Shown one piece after another: positions 7,275-37,884 of a stretch of 64,000 nucleotides of DNA. This stretch comes from Klebsiella phage Magnus, in sequence record NC_049462.1, one strand, 5' to 3'. How positions within the stretch are numbered: the stretch's first letter is position 1; every line of letters begins with the position of its first letter. Position numbers and translations under genes: made by a program. The notes under the pieces were generated by a model. The model had not been told where the DNA came from. It was given only the letters and a program-made list of their open reading frames with translations, and did not search any database.

Positions 7275-8492
7275 TTATTTCTTCATCAGTGACATCAGAT
7301 TAACGCTCTTTCCAACAGGAACGGCCTCCTGTTTGCGTTCAATACGCTCTTCAGGTTCCCAGCGTGTCCCCTTCTGTAGATGCCAGATATGAAGGGGAAC
7401 GCCCGTCTCAAAGAACACCGGCATCTTCCACTTCTGGACGCCGGGAACGTGCCCTGCGGGAGCCTTCTCACATAACAGGGTATCCGGTAGCCAAAGTGAA
7501 CGCGCTTCCCAGAGTGCCGCGCAGGAGTACTCCGGCCAAATGCGTTCCATGTAGTCGATTTCATCCCAGGTACGCTCAGCATCCCACCCGATATAACGAG
7601 TGTTCTTCAGACGGAAGAATTTCTTCAACCAACACGCACCAGAGGTCTCAAAGTTCAGACGGTTGATGAACGTCAGATGACCGAATTCTTCAACGCATTC
7701 ATGGAATGCCTTTTCCAAATCGGCTTCCAGGATGTCACACTCTTCATCGGTAATAGGACAGCCATCGATCTTTTTCTTCCCGTGTTTGGTCACCCAATCA
7801 TCACGATTAGAAAGAAACGCCGCGCCATTTCGATTCGATTCACTACCTTCACGGTCACGCAGCATGAAACCGGGAACGTCAATTTCCCACATGTTACCGA
7901 ACACCATGTTCAGGGCTTCCAGGAAGTTCCAGGCGCTCAGGCGGCCGAAGTATTTCCAGGACATCGCCGTGTCCCACAACTCAGTAAACTGGTCTTCCTT
8001 CATGGTGCATTCCAGCATCCAACGGAAAGAATCCATCTGAGTTTTACCGCCCAGCCAATCCACATAGGACTGAACACATGGGATCATCTTGGACTTGCGG
8101 TAGCGGCAATCAGTATCGAAGCGCATGCGTTCAAAGTTCAGATTATACCAGTCCGAGAAGCGCTGCATTTCTTCTTTGGTCTGAGGAGGGACCGGGAACT
8201 CAGAGTAGATTGTCCACGGGCCGATCGCATTATAGCAGCAACCCCAAAGGAACGCCATCCAGATCTTGCGCTCGATCTTTTCCAGGTTGGTGAGGCCTTC
8301 TGTGACTTCAATAGCATAATCCATCAGACGCATCTGCTGGTTGTGCTCTTCAGTATAGGACAGCGCTTCTACCCACGCCTTGAGCAGATACATCCGGTTC
8401 TCAGGCTTGCGGTAGTCAACCTTCAGATCAATCGGGTACTTCCATTGCTCAGGGGCTTTATACCCCTGCGGCATTTTAGATAAATGTGCCAT
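7275..8492 (-). CDS. hypothetical 405-aa protein; candidate DNA base-modification enzyme (function unproven)
   Basis: Large Trp-rich ORF directly adjacent to the P-loop nucleotide kinase gene; no motif I can name. Confidence 0.5.
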   Translation of the reverse strand: MAHLSKMPQGYKAPEQWKYPIDLKVDYRKPENRMYLLKAWVEALSYTEEHNQQMRLMDYAIEVTEGLTNLEKIERKIWMAFLWGCCYNAIGPWTIYSEFPVPPQTKEEMQRFSDWYNLNFERMRFDTDCRYRKSKMIPCVQSYVDWLGGKTQMDSFRWMLECTMKEDQFTELWDTAMSWKYFGRLSAWNFLEALNMVFGNMWEIDVPGFMLRDREGSESNRNGAAFLSNRDDWVTKHGKKKIDGCPITDEECDILEADLEKAFHECVEEFGHLTFINRLNFETSGACWLKKFFRLKNTRYIGWDAERTWDEIDYMERIWPEYSCAALWEARSLWLPDTLLCEKAPAGHVPGVQKWKMPVFFETGVPLHIWHLQKGTRWEPEERIERKQEAVPVGKSVNLMSLMKK

Positions 8493-8495
8493 ACA

Positions 8496-8876
8496 TCAAT
8501 CCTTTTCGCCGACGGAACTTGAAAGTTCTTCATCTCCAGGATGAGGCTGAACTGGCTCCAGTTGCACTTGATCTGCGGTGACCGGGCCGAATGCAGAGTT
8601 CCAGATATCGACAAAGCGTTTGTCAGAAGTAACAACCCACATGCGCTTGGCTTTATTGGAACGGTCAGCAATGAACGCCTGGGCGTTGGCGTTAGTACGG
8701 ACGAGACCGACCTGGCGCCACTGACCGAAATCTTTAGACGCCGGGTTAGTGTTCAGCTGAAACTGCGGGATAACCCGGTTGTCTTCCGGATAATAACGGA
8801 CAGCATTGATCATCTTGGCATCGCCCTTATAATCAATAGCGATAGCCACGGCATCGCGGGGAATCAAAATTTTCAT
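8496..8876 (-). CDS. hypothetical protein (126 aa)
   Basis: ORF. Confidence 0.5.
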   Translation of the reverse strand: MKILIPRDAVAIAIDYKGDAKMINAVRYYPEDNRVIPQFQLNTNPASKDFGQWRQVGLVRTNANAQAFIADRSNKAKRMWVVTSDKRFVDIWNSAFGPVTADQVQLEPVQPHPGDEELSSSVGEKD

Positions 8877-8877
8877 C

Positions 8878-9075
8878 TCATTTCCTTAAAAATAATTTAT
8901 AGACAACAGGTATCAAGAACGATAAGAAGCCGAACCAGTAAACCACATTCATGGTTTTCTTTTCTGCTTCTGACAGATCAATGAAACCATAATGATACAC
9001 TATCATGGTTAATAATGAGGCTAAACAAGTGATCGCCCCGACCAATAAAATAGCATCCAACCACTTGCTGTTCAT
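8878..9075 (-). CDS. small membrane protein (65 aa)
   Basis: Two hydrophobic helices. Confidence 0.4.
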   Translation of the reverse strand: MNSKWLDAILLVGAITCLASLLTMIVYHYGFIDLSEAEKKTMNVVYWFGFLSFLIPVVYKLFLRK

Positions 9076-9077
9076 CT

Positions 9078-9962
9078 TTATTTCCTCAACATCATAGCCA
9101 GCACGTTAGAACTTTTGGACGGCTGTTTCTTTTCATCAGCCGTCTTCTTGACAGTCGGGCGGCGGGTAGCCTTTTCCGGTACGCGATGCGCCAGCGGGTC
9201 TGAACCACCAACTTCGCGTGTCATTGGATGGTCTTCGCAATACTTATAGAATTCTTTGAAGACGAACCCAGCGTCACGGACTTCATTGATGATCATGTGA
9301 TGAATGGCATTACCAATCACCCACAGCGGTGCGTCGAATGGCAATTGGGCAACTTCGCTGCCAACGCCGTTCTTTTTGTAGAGGACGTCCTGACCGCTGT
9401 ATGAATCTACAACAACTTCCCAACCCGCCGCCACCATTTCAGATTTAGACTTTTCGAACTCTTTCTGATAAGACTCATTCCGAGTCCAGCCCGAATCCCC
9501 GGCTTCTTTACCAGAACGCCCACGGATACGAGCATCATACTGATAACGATCCGGATACGTGAAGTACAACAGCGCCAGTTGTTCAATAGGATAATTGGCA
9601 AACAGCCATTCTGGACGCCATTTATCAGACAGCATCAGCGGTTCACCCTCACAGACCAGCGTATATCCCGCGCTGAGATGTTCTTTGACCAGTTCGCGGG
9701 CGATATCACCAGAACCTGTCGCGGCATGGATAGCGTCCATCGAGGTCCACGAGGCAAGACCGGATTTGTTTGACGCAGTATACTGGCCGACAAACATTAA
9801 TTTCAGTTCATCAAAGGCCAGACCAAACAGGCGCGTTTTATCGCCGATGGTATAAGTGACCTCGCGAGGTTCCAGGCGGGTACGCAGCCATTCGATGAAC
9901 TGTACCACACGAGTACCCTTGCCCGTGCCGCTTGTGCCTTTGATTACAATCAGTTTTGACAT
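9078..9962 (-). CDS. P-loop nucleotide/nucleoside-monophosphate kinase-like protein (294 aa); candidate (hm)dNMP or DNA 5-hmdU kinase
   Basis: N-terminal Walker A 'IKGTSGTGKGT' (GxxGxGKGT, as in adenylate and dNMP kinases). Confidence 0.55.
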   Translation of the reverse strand: MSKLIVIKGTSGTGKGTRVVQFIEWLRTRLEPREVTYTIGDKTRLFGLAFDELKLMFVGQYTASNKSGLASWTSMDAIHAATGSGDIARELVKEHLSAGYTLVCEGEPLMLSDKWRPEWLFANYPIEQLALLYFTYPDRYQYDARIRGRSGKEAGDSGWTRNESYQKEFEKSKSEMVAAGWEVVVDSYSGQDVLYKKNGVGSEVAQLPFDAPLWVIGNAIHHMIINEVRDAGFVFKEFYKYCEDHPMTREVGGSDPLAHRVPEKATRRPTVKKTADEKKQPSKSSNVLAMMLRK

Positions 9963-10339
9963 TAGTTGTCATCCTCAATACGCCAGCTCACGCCACCAAT
10001 CCACGGTGCCCAAAAGACAGCCACCTGCGGAATACCGTTTTCTTCAAACTTTACTTTATACTGGTCGTCAAAGTTATAGAATATTTCTTCGTCGTCAGGA
10101 GACATCCCAATCTCACTCAAGACACGCTTCAGTTCTTTAGCCGCTCCAACAGAGGAAGGATTCTCTTGAGAACGGATGTAGTTGTTGATATGAATGATGA
10201 CGCCATCCATATCACTATCCCCTGATCGTTTGTCAGGGCATTCTACCACTTTCAGCAATTCGTTAGACACTTCAGACTCCTTGACGGACAAATTGGTAAT
10301 GTGCAACCAGGCGGTCAACGACTTCTGTAAAATTCTCAC
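9962..10339 (-). CDS. hypothetical protein (125 aa)
   Basis: ORF that overlaps the upstream gene by 68 nt; the true start may be an internal Met. Confidence 0.45.
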   Translation of the reverse strand: MRILQKSLTAWLHITNLSVKESEVSNELLKVVECPDKRSGDSDMDGVIIHINNYIRSQENPSSVGAAKELKRVLSEIGMSPDDEEIFYNFDDQYKVKFEENGIPQVAVFWAPWIGGVSWRIEDDN

Positions 10340-11063
10340 GCAGATAGTCGAAGTGGTTGCGGCCTTCTACTGGTTTAACATATATCATGTTTTCTGAATC
10401 CGAAAGATCCAGTTTTTCATAATTCCCCTGAGGAACGAAGATGCTGAAAATATTGTTCCAGATGCACGGGTCGACATATTTCGGATTGTCGTCAATCAAA
10501 ACATCGCCAGCAACCATGTGCTTTTCATCCGTGCTGATAAACCCGTTGAAAATGTTCGGGAACTTGCCATACACGAACTGACGTTTGCTGCGTTCGTGCT
10601 CGGGTTCACATTTGGTGACAGCAACAAATTCCACCATTTCAAACTTCATGAGCAGCGCATCATGCAAGTTGTTCAAGAACTCTACCGCACCGGGCAACGG
10701 CTGCATACGGGAGTACAGATCAGGTTGGCGCCAAAAGTCCATCGGGTCGCGTCCGTTTGACATATAATGGGTCTTACCGCCGATACTGACATATGAATGT
10801 GACCATGCCGGATGAGCACGTTCACGCATCAGGATTGCCAAATCACCCGCATGGTTCATATAACATTGCTTGGTGATCGGCTGGAATTTAGCGGGGCCAA
10901 CAATCCCATCCGGGAGACTTGCTTGGGCTTCCAGGTTTCCGTCATTAAACCATTTGACCCAAGGCGATAGACTATCGACCATTGTCAGATCAACGTCCAC
11001 CAAAACCCGGTACAGGCCTCCGACCTTTGAGTTCATATCGTATAGACAAGTCAGGTTGTTCAT
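10272..11063 (-). CDS. HAD-superfamily 5'(3')-deoxyribonucleotidase-like protein (263 aa)
   Basis: HAD motif I 'VLVDVDLTMVD' (DxDxT) and a C-terminal 'DVLIDDNPKY', as in the NT5C deoxynucleotidase family. Confidence 0.55.
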   Translation of the reverse strand: MNNLTCLYDMNSKVGGLYRVLVDVDLTMVDSLSPWVKWFNDGNLEAQASLPDGIVGPAKFQPITKQCYMNHAGDLAILMRERAHPAWSHSYVSIGGKTHYMSNGRDPMDFWRQPDLYSRMQPLPGAVEFLNNLHDALLMKFEMVEFVAVTKCEPEHERSKRQFVYGKFPNIFNGFISTDEKHMVAGDVLIDDNPKYVDPCIWNNIFSIFVPQGNYEKLDLSDSENMIYVKPVEGRNHFDYLRENFTEVVDRLVAHYQFVRQGV

Positions 11064-11401
11064 TTATCTTCCTCCACTTTATCATATCCTGTCGCTTTAC
11101 AACCATCAGCCTGGCAGTCGCCATACAGGACAACCATGGAGTCTTTTACAAAAGTGGAACAATGATACAGCTCCGTTGTTGGATCGCTGTCATCGTAATT
11201 GCAAACGGTCTGGATCGGGCCGGGAGTAGTACCCTGGAGGGTGGCATGTGCTTTAACCATGTCATCCATTTTGGTCTGAGCCTGGTCTTGAGTGAAGTCC
11301 GGCCCGCTCAGGTCAGGAACATCCAGAAGAGTAGAACACGCCGTGGTAGAGAACGCCAGAGCGCATACCAGAAGGATCTTATTGTGTTTCATCTTAATCA
11401 C
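11060..11401 (-). CDS. secreted/lipoprotein-like small protein (113 aa)
   Basis: Signal peptide 'MIKMKHNKILLVCALAFSTTAC'. Confidence 0.5.
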   Translation of the reverse strand: MIKMKHNKILLVCALAFSTTACSTLLDVPDLSGPDFTQDQAQTKMDDMVKAHATLQGTTPGPIQTVCNYDDSDPTTELYHCSTFVKDSMVVLYGDCQADGCKATGYDKVEEDK

Positions 11402-11459
11402 CTATTCTTTGTCAAAGGGAAACAACAAGGGGAATTATATCCCCCTGTCGGTTATTGAA

Positions 11460-14456
11460 TCAACCTTTCTTACCCATCATCGCCAATAGATTTACTCGAC
11501 GTTTGTGAGACCAGCCAACGACCGTCAGTATAGACTGGATCGGTTCGATGAATGACTTCTCAAATGCCGTGTTGTAATCCACCCACTTCGCCATATCTAA
11601 TTCTTCGGGGAAGAACTCTGGATAGGCGAAATAGTTCTGGCCGAACGGATTACCAGCTTTCAGCAGAACAATGTTGACTTTATCTCCGGATTCAATCAAC
11701 GGTAAATCGAGTTCTTCATGTTTCTCCACCAGGCGATTGTAGCCGACGCATGCCTTTGCAGCAAAATGTGCTCCGGAGATAAAGGATCCATCAGGAGCCA
11801 CGCACTTCTCAATGTCAGATACGCCCGATGCCTTCGCAATATCATCGACGCTCAGTTTCATGTACTCATCTTTATACGTCTTGATGAGGTCTTGGACTTC
11901 GCTTTCCGTGCCTAAAAGAATGCGCTCATAGCACTTGATGAGACGTTCACGACACCATTCTGGCGTTGTTGATTTACGCGCTTCAAGACCTTTGAATTTG
12001 ATCTTCGGCTTCTCATATTTGATGCCTTCACTGTCATAGACAGCCATGCAATACATCTTCTTGGCACGCCATACTGCAGCAGACGCAATGACTTCACGCT
12101 CCCAAACCATGCGCTGTTCGTAGCCATTCATCGTATTACACAGCATCTGTGCCCATTCATTGGTCTTGGGCTGATAATTCTCCTTGATCCATTGGTCGAT
12201 GTTATCAACGAGTTTGTGGTGGTCAGTTTCTCCTTCCCACAATTTCTTGACCAGGCGCTCAATACAGATATAGTTCGAGTCCGTGTCCCCCGCGATAACA
12301 TAATCCAGGCCGCTGGTCCCACACAATCCGTTAAGATAATCGTCAGTGTAACGCTTGTTCCACTTATTGATCAACTGCCCTGAAGTTGTAATCGCTTCCG
12401 CAATGTTGAGGTTAAAGTATTCTTTAAACCAAACGTTAGAGATTGCACCATAACCTGCGTTCATCAAGATCTTCAGACCTTGCTGTAACGTGTCTTGGGC
12501 AACGCCAAGGTCTTCCCATTTGCGCATCACTTCGGACAGGTGGTCAAGGTCGATGTTCTTGTGCTCTTCATACCAGTCTTGGTCAAAGTAGCGGGATTTC
12601 ATCGCGGATTCAAGGTGGAAATCACCCTTAGACATTTCCTTACACCAGCCCGCCCATTGCTCATACTTCAGACCCTTGGCCTTCTCACCTTTACGGTCAG
12701 CGTAAATGCCGCGCATAATCTCAGAGAGGAAGGACATTTTCTCATTACTGAAGAACTGAACGTTCGGTGTAAACGACACGTTGTAACGCACGAGGGTTTC
12801 AAATCGGAATTCACCCAGGGCAACCAGTTCATCTACAACCTGTAGGCGTTCATCAATCGCGCGGAGCAGCTTGTCATGAAGATTCTTCATATGGCGACGT
12901 TTATGCATCGGCGTCGTCATATCGTTCATCTTAGCAGCAAGCTCTTCACACATGGCTTCAATGATTTCACGACGGGTATGTTTATCGCCGATAATCGTTT
13001 CAGGCCCAAGGTTGTACTGCTGAATGATGTGTGGGTACAGGGAGTTCAAGTCCTCTGAGAAGACCCAATAATAGATCCCTGGCGCCACTTCCATGACATA
13101 TGCGCCTTCAAAGTTTGTCGGCCCATCATAGACGCGCTGAACTTTGGGAACAATCCCCTTTTCGTACAGCTTGTAATAACACATGGCCAACCACGGGGCT
13201 ACCGTACCCAAGCCGTCTTCAAAGTTAGATTTGGTGCGATATGCCAGGACAAACATCAGCTGAATGAGACGCAGCTTTTGTTCCAGACGCCAGACGAGTT
13301 TGACGTCCTTAATACCATACCGGGTGTGCTTACAATAATCGTTGAAATACAGATCAAACAGTGATTTGCTCTCACTGTAATCCATCTTCTTCTCACCGAG
13401 TTCGCAATACGCAATCCAGTCCAAAGAATATCTCTCACGTGTGGTGTACGTGTGCTTCTTGTAGACCTGCAGGTAATCCAACATAGGACAGCCAACGAAC
13501 TGATAAGTCGTGATGTCACCCTTCTTATCCCGGATGATGCGCTTTTTGATCTTACCCCAAGGACTCAGGCGATTGGTGTCGGCTTCACCCAATACTTGCA
13601 TGCAGCGTTCCACCAGGTAGGGGCTATCAAATTGCTCGATGTTCCAGCCTGTCCAGCAGTCAAAGGCCCGCGCTTCCCAGTAATCAACAAATGACCGCAG
13701 CAGATCTTGTTCGGTGGTGAACTCTTGATATTCTACTTCCAGACCACCGATCTCTTCATCATTTGGGTCATATTTGAATTTATGGCGATCCTTAGAACAC
13801 GGCATCCCCCAGACCATATATTTGTTATTGGTCAGATCCTGGAGCTGAATGAGCGTAATCGGGAATGCCGCATTCATGTTCTGGGTGATCTTACCATTTG
13901 CGTCAATGATGGGGAACTGGTCGGTCACATTGTTGGAGATAAAGGAGCCGGGGAAATGCTCGCGAACGAACGCATGGTTGGCCAGGATACGTTTATGGAA
14001 CTGACGAACACGCGCCGCGCTCCCTTTGAACGTCTGTAGTTCGATCGTCGGGTGCGGGAATGGACCTTTAGTCATCTGCCCATCGACCCATCCTGCAGAG
14101 AACACTTCGATATCAAGGTTGGCGATATGGATGTTGTTGTAATCTGGCTGAATTGTACCAGGAAAACTGTGGGCGATGAATTGATAGGCATAGTCGGTCT
14201 GACCATATATCGCCGCGCCTTCTACATCCTTGTATTCCTCCATATAGTTGTCGGCGTCACGCATAGACGCAAACTTTTTAGAAATCAGAGGTTCGTTCAA
14301 CAGGCCGACTTTTTCAACATTAGAATAATCAGCCGTGGGTAAATATAGAGTGGGTTCGAATTTCTTTTTGAGCATGCGGCGGTTGCCCATGTCATCTGCA
14401 ATTCGAACTAACAGGTCGTTGCCTTGCCGGGCGACGTTAGTATAGAAAACAGTCAT
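11460..14456 (-). CDS. 43: Family B DNA polymerase (T4 gp43-like), ~999 aa
   Basis: Clear collinear similarity to T4 gp43 (e.g. 'RLSPWGKIKK...LDYLQVYKK', 'SLYPHIIQQYN', 'YVIAGDTDS'). Start chosen at 'MTVFYTNV' (ATG 14456) to match the T4 N-terminus 'MKEFYISI'. The ORF-track extension to 14639 overlaps the divergent gene. Confidence 0.9.
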   Translation of the reverse strand: MTVFYTNVARQGNDLLVRIADDMGNRRMLKKKFEPTLYLPTADYSNVEKVGLLNEPLISKKFASMRDADNYMEEYKDVEGAAIYGQTDYAYQFIAHSFPGTIQPDYNNIHIANLDIEVFSAGWVDGQMTKGPFPHPTIELQTFKGSAARVRQFHKRILANHAFVREHFPGSFISNNVTDQFPIIDANGKITQNMNAAFPITLIQLQDLTNNKYMVWGMPCSKDRHKFKYDPNDEEIGGLEVEYQEFTTEQDLLRSFVDYWEARAFDCWTGWNIEQFDSPYLVERCMQVLGEADTNRLSPWGKIKKRIIRDKKGDITTYQFVGCPMLDYLQVYKKHTYTTRERYSLDWIAYCELGEKKMDYSESKSLFDLYFNDYCKHTRYGIKDVKLVWRLEQKLRLIQLMFVLAYRTKSNFEDGLGTVAPWLAMCYYKLYEKGIVPKVQRVYDGPTNFEGAYVMEVAPGIYYWVFSEDLNSLYPHIIQQYNLGPETIIGDKHTRREIIEAMCEELAAKMNDMTTPMHKRRHMKNLHDKLLRAIDERLQVVDELVALGEFRFETLVRYNVSFTPNVQFFSNEKMSFLSEIMRGIYADRKGEKAKGLKYEQWAGWCKEMSKGDFHLESAMKSRYFDQDWYEEHKNIDLDHLSEVMRKWEDLGVAQDTLQQGLKILMNAGYGAISNVWFKEYFNLNIAEAITTSGQLINKWNKRYTDDYLNGLCGTSGLDYVIAGDTDSNYICIERLVKKLWEGETDHHKLVDNIDQWIKENYQPKTNEWAQMLCNTMNGYEQRMVWEREVIASAAVWRAKKMYCMAVYDSEGIKYEKPKIKFKGLEARKSTTPEWCRERLIKCYERILLGTESEVQDLIKTYKDEYMKLSVDDIAKASGVSDIEKCVAPDGSFISGAHFAAKACVGYNRLVEKHEELDLPLIESGDKVNIVLLKAGNPFGQNYFAYPEFFPEELDMAKWVDYNTAFEKSFIEPIQSILTVVGWSHKRRVNLLAMMGKKG

Positions 14457-14534
14457 TGTATTCTCCAGGTTATCCGTGCCGTTAGCACGTTCCCATAATT
14501 TAACCGAGGAGGGTTCATTGACCAAGGAGTTTAT

Positions 14535-15107
14535 ATGGCAATCCCCTTGGTAAGCATGATTCCTGGTGCTTTGAAACAGCTCTGGAATCTGGGAACTGAT
14601 TTGATTCAATATAAGCGGGAAATTGTAAGCGCCAAACACGATGTCAAGTTAGAAGCGATCAAATCGTCTTCTGACTGGGAACTATCTAAGATCACAGAAG
14701 TTGGTGGTTCTTGGAAGGATGAGTTCTGGACTATCGTTCTTGCGGTTCCCGCGATCCTCGTTATGTTAGCTCCTGTTGTGGAACTGCTTTTGTTCCCCGG
14801 CGAATATCATAAAGGGGATTTCATCAAAGCAGTAGTCGGTGGCATGCAAGCCCTGGATACCGCGCCTGATTGGTATACTGCTTCATTATTGACAGCAATT
14901 AGTGCATCATTCGGTATCAAAGGCTACAACCACTTTAAAAGCAACAGCCGCAAGGCGCAAGCTGTCGATGCCCTTAAACAATTCGGCGTCAAAGTGGTTA
15001 GCAAAGATCCCACTGTTGTTACTCAGTCGGGTTCTCCCGATCTTGAGTCTGCTCCCCCAGCTGGGTCTACTGCGACCTCTGGTGCGTGGCCTGATCTGAA
15101 GAAATAA
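14535..15107 (+). CDS. membrane protein (190 aa), divergent from the polymerase gene
   Basis: Two predicted TM helices. Confidence 0.5.
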   Translation: MAIPLVSMIPGALKQLWNLGTDLIQYKREIVSAKHDVKLEAIKSSSDWELSKITEVGGSWKDEFWTIVLAVPAILVMLAPVVELLLFPGEYHKGDFIKAVVGGMQALDTAPDWYTASLLTAISASFGIKGYNHFKSNSRKAQAVDALKQFGVKVVSKDPTVVTQSGSPDLESAPPAGSTATSGAWPDLKK

Positions 15108-15112
15108 TGTTC

Positions 15113-15138
15113 AAGGGGCTTCGGCCCCTTTCTTTTGG
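15113..15138 (+). terminator. Rho-independent terminator
   Basis: AAGGGGC-TTCG-GCCCCTT followed by TCTTTTGG. Confidence 0.6.
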
Positions 15139-15147
15139 TGTTAAGGA

Positions 15148-15360
15148 ATGGATGTGGTAAACAAGAGATTGCTCGTCACCCAGGGCGGGGCGACGATAGT
15201 AAGAGGCCGGATTTATGAACAAACTAAACTCGGCTCACACAAAACTAGACTGAAAGTAAAAGCACCAGATGGTGGTTGGCCAACAAATGTGATCGTTCCC
15301 GATGGTCTCATAGAACGAGGGTTCGCGACATACCGAGGAGCAGAGTTCAAAATTTATTAA
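15148..15360 (+). CDS. small hypothetical protein (70 aa)
   Basis: ORF. Confidence 0.35.
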   Translation: MDVVNKRLLVTQGGATIVRGRIYEQTKLGSHKTRLKVKAPDGGWPTNVIVPDGLIERGFATYRGAEFKIY

Positions 15361-15376
15361 AAATTTATTGAAAAAC

Positions 15377-15404
15377 TTTACTTCTTCAATAACTGGCGTA
15401 TACT
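15377..15404 (+). promoter_or_regulatory. T4-type early (sigma70-like) promoter TTTACT-N16-TATACT
   Basis: -35 TTTACT 15377-15382, -10 TATACT 15399-15404, with an AAATTTATTG UP-like tract upstream. The same module occurs at 59626 and 62396. Confidence 0.5.
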
Positions 15405-15453
15405 TCAAATTGTAGTACGAACAAACAACAAATTGAAGAGAAGGAAATACATC

Positions 15454-16011
15454 ATGGGCATCGAAATCATCGTTCAATCAAAATCAGGCAAAACAGTAAT
15501 GTACGGCACTGAAGAAGGTCGCTGCATCATTAACTACGGCACCATCACTGGTGAAGCGCCAGAGAAAGGTGGTCGCTATTTGGTTGAGTATGGTTCGCGT
15601 GTCCTGATGGTGAGCAAAGTCGACGGTCGTGAAATTATGATTCCACGCAAAGAATACTTTGATTCTCGGGTTGAAGCCATGCAGTTCTTCCTGTTCCAGC
15701 AGAGCCATGAACGCTTTGTAGAAGCCAAAGACGCCGGGCTGGACGATGCAACTGCCGAACTGATTGCCGAAGGGAAAATGACTCTTGAAGCCGCTCTGGG
15801 CGATATGGATATGGACGCCGAAGCACATTGGATTGAATATTCCGCATACCAGAACGAATGCGAAGACGATCCGGAAGATGACGGGTTTGATCCAGATCTC
15901 CACGGCGGCGAAGACGACAATACCCCTCCTCTGGAAATTCTGATGGCGGGTGGTCAGGCCGCTTGGGAATGGCAGAACGAGAAAAATGCCTGGCTGGATA
16001 GCCGCCTCTAA
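15454..16011 (+). CDS. hypothetical protein with an acidic C-terminus (~185 aa)
   Basis: ORF, start taken at MGIEII with a GAGAAGGAAA RBS. Confidence 0.5.
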   Translation: MGIEIIVQSKSGKTVMYGTEEGRCIINYGTITGEAPEKGGRYLVEYGSRVLMVSKVDGREIMIPRKEYFDSRVEAMQFFLFQQSHERFVEAKDAGLDDATAELIAEGKMTLEAALGDMDMDAEAHWIEYSAYQNECEDDPEDDGFDPDLHGGEDDNTPPLEILMAGGQAAWEWQNEKNAWLDSRL

Positions 16012-16020
16012 TATCAAGTA

Positions 16021-16038
16021 AAGCCCCTTCGGGGGCTT
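16021..16038. terminator. terminator-like hairpin between convergent genes (1 of 2)
   Basis: AAGCCCC-TTCG-GGGGCTT. Confidence 0.45.
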
Positions 16039-16071
16039 CTTATCCAAATTTGAAACATAGGTCTACATAAA

Positions 16072-16098
16072 GAAGGGGCTTTCGCCCCTTTTCTTATT
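16072..16098. terminator. bidirectional terminator-like hairpin between convergent genes (2 of 2)
   Basis: AAGGGGC-TTTC-GCCCCTT, with T-tracts on both strands. Confidence 0.5.
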
Positions 16099-16546
16099 CC
16101 CAGAAATCATCGTCATCATCGACGTCAGCCAATTCAGTATCCAGATCTTCATCCGAATACTCCGGCAGTTTACCATTCTGTTGCAGGTAAGCAATCTCAT
16201 CATCTTCCAGCTGCAGGTCGGTGGCGATAAAAAGTGCATCGCTTTCTTCGTCATGCTCAATGCTGTATGACGTATATTCCATGCCCTGAACGGTAATGAT
16301 GATGCTGGTCGGATCATCGGGGTCGACGTGTGCCTCGAAAGGAACTCCATCAATCGGAGCGTCTTCCAGGAAAGTTGCCAGGGCGATAGCAGCACGAACA
16401 ACGTCGGTGCCTTCTACGGATGCATAGATCTCTTCGGCGCCAGTTTCCCCGCGCTCAAAAAACTCTATGGTTGTGCCGTCTTGAACGCCAGTCCAGATTG
16501 GAGCGTCCAGTATTGATTCAGATTCGAATAAAGTGGAGATTGCCAT
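16094..16546 (-). CDS. highly acidic protein (150 aa, very Asp/Glu-rich); DNA-mimic/anti-restriction candidate
   Basis: Roughly 30% D+E, including 'DVDDDDDFWE'. Confidence 0.5.
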   Translation of the reverse strand: MAISTLFESESILDAPIWTGVQDGTTIEFFERGETGAEEIYASVEGTDVVRAAIALATFLEDAPIDGVPFEAHVDPDDPTSIIITVQGMEYTSYSIEHDEESDALFIATDLQLEDDEIAYLQQNGKLPEYSDEDLDTELADVDDDDDFWE

Positions 16547-16555
16547 GTCAGTGAT

Positions 16556-16591
16556 CCTCAGTGTGGATTATGGGGTATTTAGCCACACTGA
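16556..16591 (-). promoter_or_regulatory. hairpin with a perfect 10-bp stem (CTCAGTGTGG/CCACACTGAG); on the minus strand its loop carries the late-promoter-like motif CTAAATACCCCATA, and its stem includes the RBS of the acidic gene
   Basis: Inverted repeat 16556-16565/16582-16591; the reverse complement of the loop is GGCTAAATACCCCATAAT. Confidence 0.45.
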
Positions 16592-16614
16592 GAACCATAT
16601 ATGGGCAAGACAAA

Positions 16615-17994
16615 TTAGGAAGGTATAAATGTATCGACAAAAATGTGATCACTGCCAGGAATATCACCCAACTCCGGACATGCTGCCTTCATCGGTTCTA
16701 CATACGGCTTACTACCAACGATCCAGAACAGAGAGTTCTCGTTCAACAACTCTGGTTTGTGTTCCTGGATCCACGTCATCACCTTGCCTTCATAGCGAGG
16801 ATGAAGTTCAATATCACCCCATTGGTATTCCATCAGATCGTTGTAACGAACCCAATTGGTGGTGTGCAAATCCCAGTGATGGACATTAAAGCGCGGAGAA
16901 CCATCCGCTCTCTCCAGTTCTTTCGGGTCGTAACGACCTAACAGGCCAAGCAGTGAAACGCTCTTAGGGGACTGCGGAGAGTCCTTCTTACCATACAGAT
17001 AATCCGGGTTGTCATGATAATGACGAGTGAAGTCCACGATGTGTGGTAAATTAGCATATTCACCAATAATGCGCAGACGACTTTCAATGAAGTCAAGGCG
17101 GTTTGGACCGATACCGATCAGGTACACATTTTTCAGATTCGGTTTTGGATGCATCGCCAGCCCGGTTAGAATACTGGTGCAAGAGTTGCATGAACCCGCC
17201 GGGATGATCAGATCAGTAATATGATCCGGAATGTTGGCGACCTGTTCACCACCCAGCATATGGAATCCAGCGATGCGCTCCGGGGAATGCAATTTATGGT
17301 CCAGAGTGATCCCATACTCCAGATAATACGCCTTTGGATTCTGTTGTTCAATCAGCTTCTTACAGCGCGGCTGAATGGTGCTGTTATAACCGGAACCGAC
17401 GAAATTGAAGATACTACCAAACCAGGCAGACATTGCCACCATGTCGTGGTTCATACAAGTGGTTGGCTTGGTTGCACCCAGGACTGTAGTCGTATGCCCG
17501 CCGAAGTGCCGAGAGACTGCCGTCGCCATAGGGGACTGCGGACTACCAACGACAGTACCATGGATGATATCGGGGGAGCCTCCGGCCTTTAAATGCTCAA
17601 CCATGAGCCAGATAGCCTGACGGAGTTTGCTGCCGTTGATACCCTGTTGCCCGTTTGCATAGTTGGACAGCGGCGCGAAGTAATCTTCACGTTTGAACCA
17701 AACCTGTTGGTTGGTTACGGGGTTTGCAACGAGTTCACACGGGGTGTGTTTGTAGAGATAATCTTCCCAGTGAACCAGGTTGCGGTCTAGAGAAAGAGTT
17801 TTGAAGATAGTTTTGTTGTGATGTTGAGAGATAATACCCCCCATCGACGATTCTTCCTTTAACGCATCGCTGACAAATTCTTCAAGGATATCTTGGTTGA
17901 TACTACTTTCACAGCTTTGGACTGTAAATGGAGTTGTATTTGTTTCAACAACAGTTTTGATGTCATTTAAAAGTTTCTGTGTTTTATCGTTCAT
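16615..17994 (-). CDS. PLP-dependent fold-type II enzyme (ACC-deaminase/D-cysteine desulfhydrase-like), 459 aa
   Basis: 'INGSKLRQAIWLMVEHLKAGG...GTVVGSPQSPMATAVSRHFG' resembles the family pattern GGNKxRKLE...GGxQSNHxxATA. Confidence 0.5.
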   Translation of the reverse strand: MNDKTQKLLNDIKTVVETNTTPFTVQSCESSINQDILEEFVSDALKEESSMGGIISQHHNKTIFKTLSLDRNLVHWEDYLYKHTPCELVANPVTNQQVWFKREDYFAPLSNYANGQQGINGSKLRQAIWLMVEHLKAGGSPDIIHGTVVGSPQSPMATAVSRHFGGHTTTVLGATKPTTCMNHDMVAMSAWFGSIFNFVGSGYNSTIQPRCKKLIEQQNPKAYYLEYGITLDHKLHSPERIAGFHMLGGEQVANIPDHITDLIIPAGSCNSCTSILTGLAMHPKPNLKNVYLIGIGPNRLDFIESRLRIIGEYANLPHIVDFTRHYHDNPDYLYGKKDSPQSPKSVSLLGLLGRYDPKELERADGSPRFNVHHWDLHTTNWVRYNDLMEYQWGDIELHPRYEGKVMTWIQEHKPELLNENSLFWIVGSKPYVEPMKAACPELGDIPGSDHIFVDTFIPS

Positions 17995-19020: not shown

Positions 19021-19094
19021 TGGAAGGAGCACCAGGATTCGAACCTGAGATCATGGGATCAAAGCCCATTGCCTTACCGCTTGGCTATGCTCCT
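19021..19094 (-). tRNA. tRNA-Gln (anticodon TTG)
   Basis: Hand-folded cloverleaf: acceptor AGGAGCA/TGCTCCT, D-arm GCCAAGCGGTAAGGCA (as in E. coli tRNA-Gln), anticodon loop CTTTGAT, T-arm CAGGTTCGAATCCTG, encoded CCA. Confidence 0.75.
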
Positions 19095-19680
19095 GTAATT
19101 TGGACGGGCTTCTCACCCGATTGTGCATTTGATCTGCCGTAGCCCAACTCCCCGCGTCGTAACGCCGATTGGTTAACCGGCAACCAGTGCCTTCTGGTTC
19201 GATCTCCTGGAACTTTACAGGCTTCGCGCCAAACCATTTCTGGTAGTTGGGGCATCGTTTCCGATGTGGAGTCACCCCATTTTTACACAGCTGGCTGCAA
19301 CGCTTACTGTGTTTGTATCAGAGTGTCCGGTGTAGCATTCCGTGAGGTGCGCACTACTGTAGCCTCTACACTCTGAATTTGTATGAAGTGGGAATCACTC
19401 TCCTGGGCGTCTGTATCCTGCAACCTTACATTGGCAGCTATCGCGCGATTCACACTTCCGAAGGCGCTTCGAGACACTCCACTTCAATTTGGTCCGGAAC
19501 CCGGTTCTGGGCCACGCTTGAGGACATCGGCCGTCCTTCCTCAGCTAATCAACCGGGTTCCAGATTTGGTGGGCGTTACTTTCGTCGGTTTCAGATTCCG
19601 TTCGGCTATTGGACGTTGTCCCAAAGAACTTGTCGGTCGCTTACTTCGTGCTTACTCGCTTTCGTTTCACACCCATTGTC

Positions 19681-19756
19681 TGGCGATGGTGGCAGGACTT
19701 GAACCTGCGACATACGATTTAACAGACCGCCGTTCTACCGACTGAACTACACCATC
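19681..19756 (-). tRNA. tRNA-Asn (anticodon GTT)
   Basis: Acceptor GATGGTG/CACCATC, D-arm GTTCAGTCGGTAGAAC, anticodon loop CTGTTAA, T-arm GCAGGTTCAAGTCCTGC, encoded CCA. Confidence 0.8.
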
Positions 19757-19763
19757 ATCAATT

Positions 19764-19849
19764 TGGTGGAAGATACAGGATTCGAACCTGTGCAACCTTT
19801 CGGTTGTACACCTTAGCAGGGTGCTGCAATACCGCTCTGCCAATCTTCC
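19764..19849 (-). tRNA. tRNA-Ser (anticodon GCT), type II with a long variable arm
   Basis: Acceptor GGAAGAT/ATCTTCC, anticodon loop CTGCTAA, 16-nt variable arm ACAACCGAAAGGTTGC, T-arm ACAGGTTCGAATCCTGT, encoded CCA. Confidence 0.8.
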
Positions 19850-20052
19850 TATTTATTCGCTTCTATGGCTCGAAGTTGCTTCTCAGCGTCTTCTTTGGAG
19901 TCATGTGTTCCCAAAACCTTTGTTTTGGTATGGTCCAACACAACCCAATGATCACCACGCTTTTCAACAAACTCAACTATCGGCTCGTCATTACATTCAC
20001 TGAGATAATCACTGAACGATTTCATCATACTCACCAATTGTTTATTGAACAA
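19849..20052 (-). CDS. small hypothetical protein (<=67 aa) between tRNA genes
   Basis: ORF-track entry with a non-ATG start; an internal Met start is possible; the stop overlaps the tRNA-Ser 5' end by 1 nt. Confidence 0.3.
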   Translation of the reverse strand: MFNKQLVSMMKSFSDYLSECNDEPIVEFVEKRGDHWVVLDHTKTKVLGTHDSKEDAEKQLRAIEANK

Positions 20053-20201
20053 CTGGTTTATTTATTCTGTAACCAACAGCAGTTTTTGTCATAGTGAAAT
20101 TATTGCCATCACCATCTTTATACAAAACACCATCAGATTTTTCGTTCAAAGACTGTTCTGAACGGCGAATCTTTTCTTTTAATGATACTTTGCCTTTCAT
20201 G
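20043..20201 (-). CDS. small hypothetical protein (52 aa) between tRNA genes
   Basis: Hand-translated 'MKGKVSLKEKIRRSEQSLNEKSDGVLYKDGDGNNFTMTKTAVGYRINKPVVQ'. Confidence 0.25.
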
Positions 20202-20216
20202 TTCAATCTCTTATTT

Positions 20217-20293
<77 letters not shown>

Positions 20294-20296
20294 ATA

Positions 20297-20372
<76 letters not shown>

Positions 20373-28667: not shown

Positions 28668-31550
28668 ATGGCTAATAAACCCACGAAACCAAATTTTCCG
28701 CTTGGGCTTGAATCACAAGAACAATCCGTATTTCAAGAAGGTATTCTGAATAATGGTGTTGTAGAACATGGCCCAGATGCGGTAATGACTGTGCCAGAAA
28801 CCCCTGATGCTTCTGGGGTTCCTTCTGCTGTCCGTTACAACGAAGACGACGATCAATTCGAAGGCTATTACAACGAAGGCGGCTGGTTGCCGCTTGGCGG
28901 GGGTAACGGGGGTCGTTGGGAAGCGCTCCCGCATGCTTCCTCTTCCTTATTGCAAGCTGGGCGTGCATATCTGGTGGATAACACAGACGGCATCTCTACG
29001 GTGCTGTTCCCTTCCCCTAAACGTATTGGTGACAGTGTTACTGTCTGCGACCTTTATGGTAAATTCTCTACATACCCTCTGACTGTTGACGGTAACGGTA
29101 AATCGATCTATGGCTCTGCTGATAGCATGACGATTTCTACCGATAATGTCAGTGCGACTTTCACATGGACTGGTGAAGCCCGTGGCTGGGTTATTACATC
29201 AGGCGTCGGTCTGGGACAAGGTCGAGTTTACAGCCGCGAAATCTATAGCCAAGTTCTGTCTGCTGAAACATCTTCTATCACCCTCAGCACTCAGCCGACG
29301 ATTGTAGATGTTTATGCAGATGGGAAACGTCTGAAAGAATCCCTGTATACTCTTGACGGTTATGATGTCAAATTCGACCCGGCGTTGGCCTCTGGTTCTG
29401 ATGTGCAGATTATTCAGTATATCCCAATTCAGCTTGGCGCGGGCGGCGGGGGTTCTGGTGGTACTGTAATCACCTGGGAATACAACGGCGGCGCGGCAGT
29501 CGGCGGCGAGACTCAAATCGTTCTGGACGTAGTCGTTGATTCCGTTTCCGAGATCTATATCCGTGGGCAGCGTCAACAGATCGGTCGCGGGTTCACTTTT
29601 GATGCAGAGACCAGTACAATCACGCTTGCTGATGAATTGGAAACTGGCGATGATGTCGTCGTTATTATTAATGGCGATCCAACGGTCTATAACCAGATTG
29701 ATCGTACTCCTTGGGAAGTGGCTCGTGCAAATAATGTGAGAAATGATGAAGTCATACTCAGCACCGACAAGCAAACCGTGTTGGACGGTAAAACCGTTCT
29801 CTATGACGTGGCAACTCAGACTAGCTGGATGATACCAGATGGTATACCATCCGGTTCTAAAATAGTTTCTGTGTCTCTTGGTATCCTTTCTGTTACTGCT
29901 GGGTTATCATATAATTTAATTAAAATATTTGAGAAAGGTTTAGTGCCTTATAATTCGGTTTATTTCGAAGATAACTCAACTTTAAAATCTTACATAGAAT
30001 TCAAAACCCCAGAAAGTTTTGGCGCTTTTGGTGACGGAATCCATGATGATTCCACATCATTACAAAACGCTTTGAATTGGTTGACGCAAAAGGCATATAG
30101 AAAATTAGTTTTTAACCCAGGGAAGGTTTACTTTCACACGGTTCCATTGACCGCCACATTTTCTGGGGCATCTAGTGTGGGTTGTTCTTTAATTATGGAA
30201 GGTGTGTTGTACCCATCACCAGACGTAGGTGACGCCCTCACTATAACAGAATCGATGTATTGTGAATTTAAATTAAAAGTGAAGGGTGATGGTTACAATA
30301 TATCTACGTTGCCAGATTATTCACAAGCAGACCCCGTCGGTTGTCAGCAAGCATTCGTTATTAATTCTTGCCGAGGCTGTAAAGTGGAAGTTTTTGGTTA
30401 TAGTTACGGTGGTAGGGTCATCAGGACCAAAGGGACCGGCGTTACTAAAATGTCCTTTATCGACTTATCAATAAAAACCGGTGAAGGAAGTTGTGGGCAA
30501 GCGGCCTATTTGCAAGCTACTTCAGATGCGTATGGGCGTATTACTCATGCACAAACTCAATGGGATTATTACGGAATTGTTTTAGATAAGTTGACGGATG
30601 TCACAATCAGTTATTGGGAATATGGAAATAAAAATTCTGCTGTTCCTGCAATGCTTATTAATGACTGCGGAAGTTTGGATGCTTCTAATGTTACTGGCGG
30701 TTCAACATGGGATTCTGATACTTCCACAACTTTAAAAATCGTTGGAGGACAAGGAATACATTTCTCTCGTTTGCAAGTTGGAGAAGCATATCACGGGCTT
30801 GTGATAGAAGGATCAGGCACGGTGGATGATAAGCCTACGGTGACAGTAGATTATGTTTTGAGCTACAAAACTAATGTTTCCGTAACTCTTGTTAATACGA
30901 CGGGGGTGAATATAAAATCAGGGTTGTGTGACAATACGTACCATGGGGTTGTTTACCAAGGAAATATCTATAACTGTAAAGTAAATTTAGATGGAAGAAA
31001 TAATTTTACTGATATGCATTATGCTCCGGTAGGCACAAATATAAATTCTTTGGACATAGGTGGTGGACTGTATTCAGAATTGTCTACACATTTCGTTAAC
31101 ATGCTTAATGCCGTTGTCAAACAGTTAGGTGTTTACAACACTAATGTTGTGACATTAGGTCGTTATTTATTCCTCCCATCTGATAACGGTTGTGTCGTTA
31201 TAGGTGGGAAATGGTCAGGAAGTTCGCAAGTAAGCCCTATCGATTATAGGCCCAAACATATATCTAACGTGTTTGGTGTTAATACCAAATTTCTAAGCGC
31301 AGGTACGGTGTTTCTTGCTGGCACTAGTCAGGGTGCCACTAAAACTATCAATCATGGGCTTTGGGCCACCCCGTATGAAGTGAGTATTGTGCCATATAAT
31401 GTTAATGCTGGTAGTACGTTTTCTTCAGGAAACATAGTTATAAAAAGTTTGACATCTTCTGAAATAGTTTTGATGTATACTGGTTCTTCTCCTTTAACTG
31501 GGGATATCTATCTATTAGTCAATATAAGTTGTGAAACAAGAGTTTCATAA
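28668..31550 (+). CDS. tailspike/branched-fiber protein (960 aa): GC-normal N-terminal attachment region plus AT-rich C-terminal receptor-binding/enzymatic module
   Basis: Gly-rich linker 'LGAGGGGSGGT'. Composition switches sharply near 29840. Repeated Gly-rich and short beta-strand segments in the C-terminal part suggest a beta-helix, by eye only. Confidence 0.6.
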   Translation: MANKPTKPNFPLGLESQEQSVFQEGILNNGVVEHGPDAVMTVPETPDASGVPSAVRYNEDDDQFEGYYNEGGWLPLGGGNGGRWEALPHASSSLLQAGRAYLVDNTDGISTVLFPSPKRIGDSVTVCDLYGKFSTYPLTVDGNGKSIYGSADSMTISTDNVSATFTWTGEARGWVITSGVGLGQGRVYSREIYSQVLSAETSSITLSTQPTIVDVYADGKRLKESLYTLDGYDVKFDPALASGSDVQIIQYIPIQLGAGGGGSGGTVITWEYNGGAAVGGETQIVLDVVVDSVSEIYIRGQRQQIGRGFTFDAETSTITLADELETGDDVVVIINGDPTVYNQIDRTPWEVARANNVRNDEVILSTDKQTVLDGKTVLYDVATQTSWMIPDGIPSGSKIVSVSLGILSVTAGLSYNLIKIFEKGLVPYNSVYFEDNSTLKSYIEFKTPESFGAFGDGIHDDSTSLQNALNWLTQKAYRKLVFNPGKVYFHTVPLTATFSGASSVGCSLIMEGVLYPSPDVGDALTITESMYCEFKLKVKGDGYNISTLPDYSQADPVGCQQAFVINSCRGCKVEVFGYSYGGRVIRTKGTGVTKMSFIDLSIKTGEGSCGQAAYLQATSDAYGRITHAQTQWDYYGIVLDKLTDVTISYWEYGNKNSAVPAMLINDCGSLDASNVTGGSTWDSDTSTTLKIVGGQGIHFSRLQVGEAYHGLVIEGSGTVDDKPTVTVDYVLSYKTNVSVTLVNTTGVNIKSGLCDNTYHGVVYQGNIYNCKVNLDGRNNFTDMHYAPVGTNINSLDIGGGLYSELSTHFVNMLNAVVKQLGVYNTNVVTLGRYLFLPSDNGCVVIGGKWSGSSQVSPIDYRPKHISNVFGVNTKFLSAGTVFLAGTSQGATKTINHGLWATPYEVSIVPYNVNAGSTFSSGNIVIKSLTSSEIVLMYTGSSPLTGDIYLLVNISCETRVS

Positions 31551-31556
31551 CAACGA

Positions 31557-31564
31557 CTAAATAC
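31557..31564 (+). promoter_or_regulatory. late-promoter-like motif CTAAATAC plus hairpin CCCCATA...TATGGGG (31564-31590) plus leader TATTTTCAAATGGC
   Basis: Duplicate of the 28625 leader module. Confidence 0.45.
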
Positions 31565-31598
31565 CCCATATTGGTAACGCCTTATGGGGTATTTTCAA

Positions 31599-33596: not shown

Positions 33597-33608
33597 GGGG
33601 AAAATTAA

Positions 33609-35255: not shown

Positions 35256-35268
35256 TTGGAGAACTATC

Positions 35269-35550
35269 ATGTCATTTTCTCAAACAACTGTGCAACAAGT
35301 AACTAAAACTTTACCAGATGGTACAGTCATTGGTGTGGAATCTGTGGAAGTATCCATTCAGTATATGGTGAAGTCTGTGCAAGTGACAGCAACTTCTACT
35401 GATGCTGACCTGTATTACAGTTATGACGATGGATTATCTTGGCAAATGATGGGAAAATACCCCGTCACCCTGGATTTAACGCAAGGCGTTCCATTGCTGG
35501 AACAAGCAGAAGAACAAATCAAAAATTTGGAAGCATTTTCTACGAAATAG
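35269..35550 (+). CDS. small protein (93 aa), possible fiber-assembly/accessory protein
   Basis: ORF with a GGAGA RBS, wedged between tailspike genes. Confidence 0.45.
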   Translation: MSFSQTTVQQVTKTLPDGTVIGVESVEVSIQYMVKSVQVTATSTDADLYYSYDDGLSWQMMGKYPVTLDLTQGVPLLEQAEEQIKNLEAFSTK

Positions 35551-35594
35551 TTTGTTATCCGAAGTAACTAAAGAAAAACAACAGGAGATTCATC

Positions 35595-37577: not shown

Positions 37578-37587
37578 AGGTGAAATT

Positions 37588-37737
37588 ATGGTTGAACTTG
37601 ATGAGATGTTTAGTAACCGTGCAGTGGTTGCACAGGCTCTTTCGGAGGCTCAGGAGATGGCCGTCCAGACTGATGATGGAAACGGGGGGGAACTTACCCT
37701 GGAAGACCAAATAGCATTTGCACAAGCTCAGGAGTAG
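37588..37737 (+). CDS. small acidic protein (49 aa)
   Basis: Hand-translated 'MVELDEMFSNRAVVAQALSEAQEMAVQTDDGNGGELTLEDQIAFAQAQE' with an AAGGTGA RBS. Confidence 0.3.
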   Translation: MVELDEMFSNRAVVAQALSEAQEMAVQTDDGNGGELTLEDQIAFAQAQE

Positions 37738-37802
37738 GTATTCTGACAGCTTATAACTGGTGATGGTAATCCTGTTCTAAGGATATCACTGCAATGGTTT
37801 AA

Positions 37803-37831
37803 ACAAAGCCTCTTCGGGGGCTTTTCTTTTG
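37803..37831 (+). terminator. Rho-independent terminator
   Basis: AAAGCCTC-TTCG-GGGGCTTT followed by TCTTTTG. Confidence 0.55.
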
Positions 37832-37837
37832 AACAAA

Positions 37838-37845
37838 CTAAATAC
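37838..37845 (+). promoter_or_regulatory. late-promoter-like motif CTAAATAC
   Basis: 40 nt upstream of ATG 37885. Confidence 0.4.
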
Positions 37846-37884
37846 AAGGAGACATTGTTAGAAAAACAACATGAGGAACCACCC

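Follow-up and report, generated by a model that had tools for sequence, protein, structure and literature searches.

Part of the thymidine in the DNA of phage ViI (genus Kuttervirus) is replaced by 5-(2-aminoethoxy)methyl-deoxyuridine (5-NeOmdU), and lysates containing gp67, gp160, gp226, gp243 and gp247 rebuild this nucleoside on DNA that carries 5-hydroxymethyldeoxyuridine (5-hmdU) (Lee et al. 2018, PMC5889632). Both gp67 and gp243 act as kinases on 5-hmdU in DNA; in purified form, gp247 transfers L-serine onto DNA containing 5-phosphomethyldeoxyuridine (5-PmdU) to give O-serinylthymidine, a reaction that requires both a conserved Cys and a nearby Glu; and purified gp226 decarboxylates O-serinylthymidine to 5-NeOmdU, K92 being the proposed Schiff-base lysine (Lee et al. 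2021, PMC8989533). According to a 2024 review, conservation of the pathway genes extends to the whole family Ackermannviridae (PMC11721090). Here we describe the corresponding genes in Klebsiella phage Magnus, using a stretch of 64,000 nt of record NC_049462.1 (the window). Judging from the sequence, we put the probability at roughly 0.93 that positions 7275-17994 encode the half of the Ackermannviridae pathway for ViI-type thymidine hypermodification that acts after replication, in this case in a Klebsiella phage of the genus Taipeivirus.

Within that genus, phage phiHS2, whose closest relatives include Klebsiella phage Trex_ER12, has been reported to possess a homologue of every gene of the ViI pathway. 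Its DNA contains 5-NeOmdU, identified by high-performance liquid chromatography with tandem mass spectrometry (HPLC-MS/MS; m/z 302.135) and amounting to ~16% of dT, and it resists nearly all of the restriction enzymes tested; phiHS2 is a separate species, with ~80% total average nucleotide identity (tANI) to the Klebsiella Taipeiviruses (preprint, bioRxiv 10.64898/2026.05.19.726188). Magnus is itself placed by sequence in the Ackermannviridae, genus Taipeivirus. A megablast search with region 7275-17994 matched 278 phage records, the closest being Klebsiella phages cp19, Croc_ER14, HMGUkp5, Madison, 0507-KN2-1 and Menlow (97-98% DNA identity, 96-100% query cover), and Trex_ER12 is 97% identical to the region; the remaining records belong to Salmonella, Escherichia, Dickeya, Serratia and Shigella phages. 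Menlow is classified in the Ackermannviridae, genus Taipeivirus, and the window is co-linear with Menlow and Madison, with rIIA at its start (8-2764). The system is thus already known, down to the genus: what this closely related genus carries is the ViI pathway as such, and no variant of it.

The likeness to ViI extends to the order of the genes (orf226, encoding the pyridoxal phosphate [PLP] enzyme, then pol, orf237, orf239, orf240, orf243, orf244, orf245 and orf247), which the window presents in mirror image, as well as to the protein families, their orientation relative to the polymerase, and identities of 72-86% with the Cys/Glu pair, the Lys and the P-loop kept. The two differ in genus (Kuttervirus versus Taipeivirus) and in the Klebsiella host of Magnus, in a longer and unrelated N-terminal leader on the Magnus PLP protein, and in the C-terminus of the kinase and the tail of the transferase. 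What the present analysis itself shows is family membership, orthology and gene order; the enzyme activities are those of the published orthologues, which we infer to hold in Magnus as well. A sequence-only reading of this DNA had proposed a base-modification module from four open reading frames (ORFs) lying in the orientation of the polymerase. All four were recovered on the minus strand, like the polymerase, and encode 405, 294, 263 and 459 amino acids (Table 1); the profile matches given below mark them as genuine genes and not chance ORFs. On the sequence evidence that interpretation is supported, for a system that is not new, and three of its four assignments (kinase, transferase and PLP enzyme) are confirmed.

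The 405-residue protein, which had been called unassignable, proved to have a specific match to Pfam PF18724, ADDT (formerly aGPT-Pplase2), with E 1.9e-58 and 198.4 bits against a cut-off of 26.2, residues 49-292 aligning with profile positions 2-228 of 232. It falls in the very transferase family that the sequence-only reading had expected of such a toolkit, and not in an unrelated one. BLASTP gives 85% identity over the full length to ViI gp247, and the proteins of Klebsiella phages 0507-KN2-1 and Menlow are 100% identical to it. Differences from gp247 are found mostly in the N-terminal 30 residues, residues 100-180 and the C-terminal tail, whereas residues 181-384 are nearly identical. The motif E282-T283-S-G-A-C287-W288 stands in a sequence context identical to that of gp247; M6 gp51 has the same E, T and W in a MAFFT alignment, and the motif corresponds to Glu243/Thr244/Cys247 of crystallised PaMx11 gp46 (PMC11472151). 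Because PDB sequence searches with the transferase and the kinase returned nothing, even at E<=1 to 10, the gp46 structure is tied to the transferase via the literature and the motif alone. The gene lies 586 nt from the kinase gene in the same apparent operon; such a pairing also occurs in M6 and in an unrelated Pol A phage contig, in which ADDT is directly followed by a P-loop kinase. By analogy with gp247, the protein is predicted to convert 5-PmdU in DNA to 5-O-serinylthymidine, and the 85% identity, together with the 5-NeOmdU of phiHS2, points to L-serine as the donor and to an O-linked product.

The neighbouring P-loop protein of 294 residues matches HMUD2, "5-hmdU DNA kinase 2" (PF18747), over its entire length (residues 1-294 against profile positions 1-297 of 298; E 8.8e-139, 462.2 bits, cut-off 25), and is 72% identical to ViI gp243 by BLASTP. 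Its Walker A sequence GTSGTGKGT, already quoted in the sequence-only reading, occupies residues 9-17 and is identical in gp243; the proposal of a P-loop 5-hmdU DNA kinase is thereby borne out. At E<=10 no adenylate, guanylate, thymidylate, deoxynucleoside monophosphate (dNMP) or deoxynucleoside kinase family of Pfam was matched, the other hits (AAA_14, AAA_19 and DUF7831) all being sub-threshold. We therefore rejected an ordinary dNMP kinase: a full-length HMUD2 match with no ordinary kinase family beside it means that the protein does not group with the ordinary dNMP kinases; it was such a grouping that had been named in advance as telling against base modification. The kinase is predicted, after its ViI orthologue, to phosphorylate the hydroxymethyl group of 5-hmdU in DNA, yielding 5-PmdU.

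The HMUD2 gene is not of one form throughout the family. Three Ackermannviridae genomes of different genera, including Klebsiella phage KpS110 (7927-9414 of its fetched locus), encode an HMUD2 of 495-498 residues with an extra N-terminal domain of ~200 residues that belongs to PHROG 15209 ('endonuclease') and has no Pfam match. The kinase domain of the long alleles is 43-50% identical to the 294-residue kinase, while the three are 77-95% identical to one another, and the genes flanking the KpS110 allele are ~99% identical to the window. The long allele looks like a replacement spread by a mobile, homing-endonuclease-like element.

The PLP-dependent protein, likewise proposed at the outset as part of the toolkit, occupies the same genomic position as ViI gp226 and is 86% identical to it over 398 residues (61-458; BLASTP); it was assigned to phrog_3650 with E 3e-230. 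The lysine K123, within NGSKLRQ, is invariant in a three-way alignment, where it pairs with ViI K92 and M6 gp52 K36. There is no PDB sequence match at E<=10; for gp226, 1j0a has been published as a Phyre2 match with 98.9% confidence (PMC8989533). From the ViI work, the enzyme is predicted to decarboxylate O-serinylthymidine in DNA to 5-NeOmdU, with the Schiff base at K123. Residues 1-60 (17815-17994) form a variable leader unrelated to the N-termini of the orthologues, which are annotated at 401-424 residues, and megablast similarity to most relatives ends near 17780-17837. Given the good AGGAG site that accompanies the ATG at 17994, translation of the leader is probable, though it is likely to be dispensable. 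Directly downstream of the PLP gene, at 16094-16546, lies a gene for a strongly acidic protein of 150 residues (phrog_3852, no Pfam match), kept across the family at 44-99% identity and labelled 'structural protein' in one relative.

In the pathway as we envisage it, 5-hmdUTP would be made by enzymes encoded outside the window, namely a thymidylate-synthase-like dUMP hydroxymethylase, a dNMP kinase, a dUTPase-type pyrophosphatase and a dCMP deaminase, and the phage polymerase (11460-14456) would insert 5-hmdU in place of some of the T. The HMUD2 kinase, together with a second kinase, would then phosphorylate the 5-hydroxymethyl group to give 5-PmdU. Cys287 of ADDT would attack C6 of the flipped-out base, whereupon the phosphate leaves and an exocyclic methylene forms, to which the side-chain hydroxyl of free L-serine could add, producing 5-O-serinylthymidine; finally, the PLP enzyme, through its K123 Schiff base, would remove CO2 from the appended serine and leave 5-NeOmdU. 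The NT5C-like HAD protein may hydrolyse a competing pyrimidine dNMP such as dTMP. DNA so modified would resist many restriction endonucleases, and such resistance is what 5-NeOmdU confers on the DNA of Ackermannviridae phages. Members of this family are in use as candidates for therapy directed at Klebsiella, Salmonella and E. coli, so that the modification bears on host range and the evasion of defences as well as on cloning and sequencing.

Pseudomonas phages M6 and PaMx11 follow the same logic on 5-hmdU DNA, of kinase, then ADDT, then tailoring, with gp54 as the kinase, gp51 and gp46 (PUGT) as glycine:DNA transferases and gp52 as the PLP decarboxylase. The E-T...C...W motif and the PLP lysine are common to both systems, and the covalent Cys-C6 mechanism is backed by the crystal structure of PUGT from PaMx11, gp46 (PMC11472151). 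Identity is nevertheless only 24-27%; glycine is attached there through N, and serine through O here; M6 needs a radical SAM isomerase before decarboxylation, whereas the ViI-type pathway has none; and the genes are gathered there, in a siphovirus, into a single compact cluster, in contrast to their scattered arrangement here. Phage T4 resembles the present case in that a thymidylate-synthase paralogue makes a hydroxymethylpyrimidine nucleotide before replication and the DNA is decorated afterwards, and the replication and structural core of Magnus is T4-like. The target is C in T4 and T here, the decoration being a glucosyl transfer in the one and phosphorylation, amino-acid transfer and decarboxylation in the other, with partial replacement here. 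The suggestion of a base other than the glucosylated hydroxymethylcytosine of T4 accordingly finds a probable candidate in 5-NeOmdU, on the strength of the ViI-type orthology and of phiHS2.

A number of observations weigh against the ViI-type pathway in Magnus. Searches by tblastn with ViI thyA, gp67, gp160, dNMP kinase, dUTPase, dCMP deaminase and MazG found none of these in the 64-kb window; the match of the PLP protein to PALP (PF00291; E 3.6e-5, 23.7 bits) lies under the curated cut-off of 35; the catalytic Cys of the transferase is one column off relative to M6 gp51 in a simple MAFFT alignment, which implies a one-residue indel; and the fraction of T replaced varies between relatives, at ~40% in ViI versus ~16% in phiHS2. 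As to the first of these, a search elsewhere in the genome for a dUMP hydroxymethylase had been recommended by the sequence-only reading. Although the window holds none, co-linear Menlow has one, and its ViI pathway genes from the above list are located at ~72 kb and 124-127 kb, 62-87% identical to those of ViI, with Pfam assignments that include HMUDK_hel, HMUDK_HMUD1, Thymidylat_synt and dUTPase_2. From such relatives the remaining pathway genes are expected elsewhere in the Magnus genome. Comparison of the ViI and phiHS2 fractions suggests that T replacement is probably lower here than in ViI. The same enzyme families might also lead to another end product than 5-NeOmdU, if glycine, a polyamine or some other amino acid served as donor or if decarboxylation failed to occur. 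ADDT-family donors do differ: ViI uses serine, M6 and PaMx11 use glycine, PhiW-14 uses putrescine, and 1,3-diaminopropane serves in SH-Ab 15599. The Magnus transferase also departs from gp247 at 15% of positions; yet the near-identical block described above includes ETSGACW, the PLP decarboxylase is retained with its lysine, and 5-NeOmdU itself was detected in a phage of the same genus, so that we regard another product as very improbable. We give hardly any credence to the view that the proteins have nothing to do with DNA base modification, being ordinary nucleotide-pool or amino-acid enzymes instead. It draws on the annotations of relatives ('guanylate kinase', 'threonine dehydratase', 'DNA repair protein') and on the name 'guanylate kinase' given to PHROG 4409, but these GenBank labels are automatic transfers from weak similarity; NCBIfam, which offered no meaningful match for any of nine proteins, holds no equivalog for any of those in question, the kinase is an HMUD2 along its full length and resembles no ordinary nucleotide kinase, and the activities of the orthologues on DNA have been shown directly (PMC8989533).

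Within the ViI-type pathway the standing of the NT5C-like protein is less settled. Its 263 residues match NT5C (PF06941) with E 8.5e-9 and 36 bits (cut-off 24.8), over profile positions 55-140 of 180 only, and a PDB sequence search finds human mitochondrial deoxyribonucleotidase structures at E 0.0017. Motif I (RVLVDVDLT versus human RVLVDMDGV) and motif IV (LIDDNP versus LIDDRP) both align, whereas the cap that separates motif I from motif II is unaligned, exceeding its human counterpart by ~33 residues. The catalytic motifs are intact (D23-V-D25-L-T27, that is DVDLT at 23-27, and D191-D192 in IDDNP at 190-194), as the sequence-only reading had quoted them; its identification of an NT5C-type HAD nucleotidase stands by profile and motifs, and the role it proposed in the pathway is still a matter of inference. 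BLASTP gives 70% identity to ViI orf239. We regard the protein as a putative nucleotide-pool enzyme, with about even odds, as far as the sequence can tell, of a link to hypermodification. The chances are equally balanced that it is a general enzyme of deoxyribonucleotide salvage or pool maintenance, placed beside the polymerase by descent and with no specific part in the modification. In that direction point its dispensability for the reconstitution of 5-NeOmdU in vitro (PMC5889632) and the absence of the gene from the unrelated Pol A phage contig with ADDT and kinase. Two further observations count against the pathway link: distant homologues (25-32%) occur in records absent from the results of the tblastn search with ADDT, those of the rV5-like coliphages Murica and FFH2 among them, and the homologue in Acinetobacter phage SH-Ab 15599 lies beside ssb, no modification-labelled gene being present in the 14-kb stretch fetched. 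Against these stand the presence of the gene in all 23 Ackermannviridae loci examined (fetched from IMG/VR), its position between the polymerase and HMUD2, kept in Vibrio phage K388 at only 28% identity, and its packing with the kinase and the transferase into one apparent operon. Neither of the two papers by Lee et al. mentions the protein (PMC5889632, PMC8989533).

A precedent for a pool-directed role comes from Bacillus phages with 5-hmdU in their DNA, which, as Aposhian and Tremblay are said to have found in 1966, induce a dTMP 5'-nucleotidase that lowers the thymidine nucleotide pool. Action of the NT5C-like phosphatase on 5-PmdU in DNA was set aside as unsupported, the family acting on mononucleotides. 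Partial T replacement is without a published explanation. We think it rather unlikely that the NT5C-like HAD, 126-residue, DUF7254 and DUF7292 proteins are unrecognised accessory parts of the pathway; if they were, examples might be a gate on the nucleotide pool, hydrolysing dTMP or 5-hmdUMP and thereby setting the partial (16-40%) replacement, or factors that choose which thymines are modified.

Table 1. Features of the Magnus hypermodification region (positions within the window)
Feature	Position	Strand	Basis
ADDT amino acid:DNA transferase, 405 aa	7275..8492	-	Pfam PF18724
Conserved protein, 126 aa, ViI orf245 position	8496..8876	-	phrog_4163, E 2.6e-68
Hydrophobic membrane-type protein, 65 aa, ViI orf244 position	8878..9075	-	phrog_4514, E 9e-32
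HMUD2 5-hmdU DNA kinase type 2, 294 aa	9078..9962	-	Pfam PF18747
DUF7254 protein, ~102 aa from GTG start, ViI orf240 position	9962..10270	-	Pfam PF23912, E 2.1e-45
NT5C-type HAD phosphatase-like protein, 263 aa, ViI orf239 orthologue	10272..11063	-	Pfam PF06941
DUF7292 protein, 113 aa, lipoprotein-like N-terminus, first of packed unit	11060..11401	-	Pfam PF23964, E 1.9e-56
Terminator-like hairpin overlapping promoter-like site	11423..11463	-	consensus scan only
T4-type family B DNA polymerase, 998 aa	11460..14456	-	annotation of relatives
PLP-dependent fold-type II enzyme, 459 aa	16615..17994	-	ViI gp226 orthologue

Seven genes, running from that for DUF7292 at 11401 to the 405-residue transferase gene ending at 7275, are separated by intergenic gaps of -4 to +3 nt, the DUF7292 and NT5C-like genes overlapping by 4 nt; so packed a block resembles a single transcription unit. 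Between the stop codon of the polymerase and the DUF7292 gene, a consensus scan alone picks out a hairpin (11-bp stem, 6 of its pairs GC) ahead of a T-rich tail, together with a promoter-like TTGATT-18-TATAAT, which make this a possible boundary between transcription units. The polymerase ORF spans 11460-14639; an ATG with a GGAG ribosome-binding site at 14456 is most likely the start, giving the length annotated in relatives. The polymerase is 65-100% identical across loci and is labelled DNA polymerase in all relatives.

The hypermodification module is kept across the 23 loci. Scanning IMG/VR with the transferase alignment yielded almost only Ackermannviridae and one unrelated contig, so that little diversity was gained. 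As for the small genes of the block, the DUF7292 product is annotated as a 'putative lipoprotein' in relatives. The 126-residue protein, whose gene is separated from the next by 3 nt, is encoded in 20 of the 23 loci at 53-100% identity and has no match in Pfam or NCBIfam, while tblastn finds the 65-residue protein only in the five closest relatives (Taipeivirus and its neighbours), where it is annotated as a membrane protein. The DUF7254 gene adjoining the kinase exists as two allele types among otherwise near-identical Taipeiviruses, with protein identities of 100% versus ~52%.

The practical value of these assignments lies in correct annotation; the finding itself adds no new biology. Some labels in public records are already right, for instance '5-hydroxymethyluracil kinase' in Madison and 'aGPT-Pplase2 domain-containing protein' in XDRKpn-1. 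Many other records carry, for these genes, the three misleading names cited above or simply 'hypothetical protein'. The GenBank label 'guanylate kinase' of HMUD2 is an annotation artefact, and the mislabels of these genes across records are systematic misannotations. They include that of the gp67-type kinase (Menlow, 13882-14544 of the fetched stretch; ViI orf67; M6 gp54), which matches Pfam HMUDK_HMUD1 with E 8e-106 and is called 'terminase small subunit' in the RefSeq entries of Menlow, ViI, M6 and Vibrio phage K388.

In Vibrio phage K388 (6689-19999 of the fetched stretch) the pathway is compact, within ~10-13 kb, in the order polymerase, NT5C-like protein, HNH endonuclease, HMUD2, ADDT, five small genes, HMUD1, thymidylate-synthase-like protein, dNMP kinase and NTP pyrophosphohydrolase; none of the labels in the stretch shown names a PLP enzyme.

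Elsewhere in the Magnus window, five tRNA genes (Gln-TTG, Asn-GTT, Ser-GCT, Arg-TCT and Met-CAT) are found on the minus strand at 19021-20372. The set varies among relatives, Madison having Trp, and XDRKpn-1 Tyr and two Ser. The G+C content falls to 0.38-0.41 at 30001-40000, compared with ~0.47 elsewhere, over large plus-strand ORFs (28668-40077) which correspond to the tail-spike region of relatives; the drop is consistent with horizontal exchange of receptor-binding or depolymerase genes.

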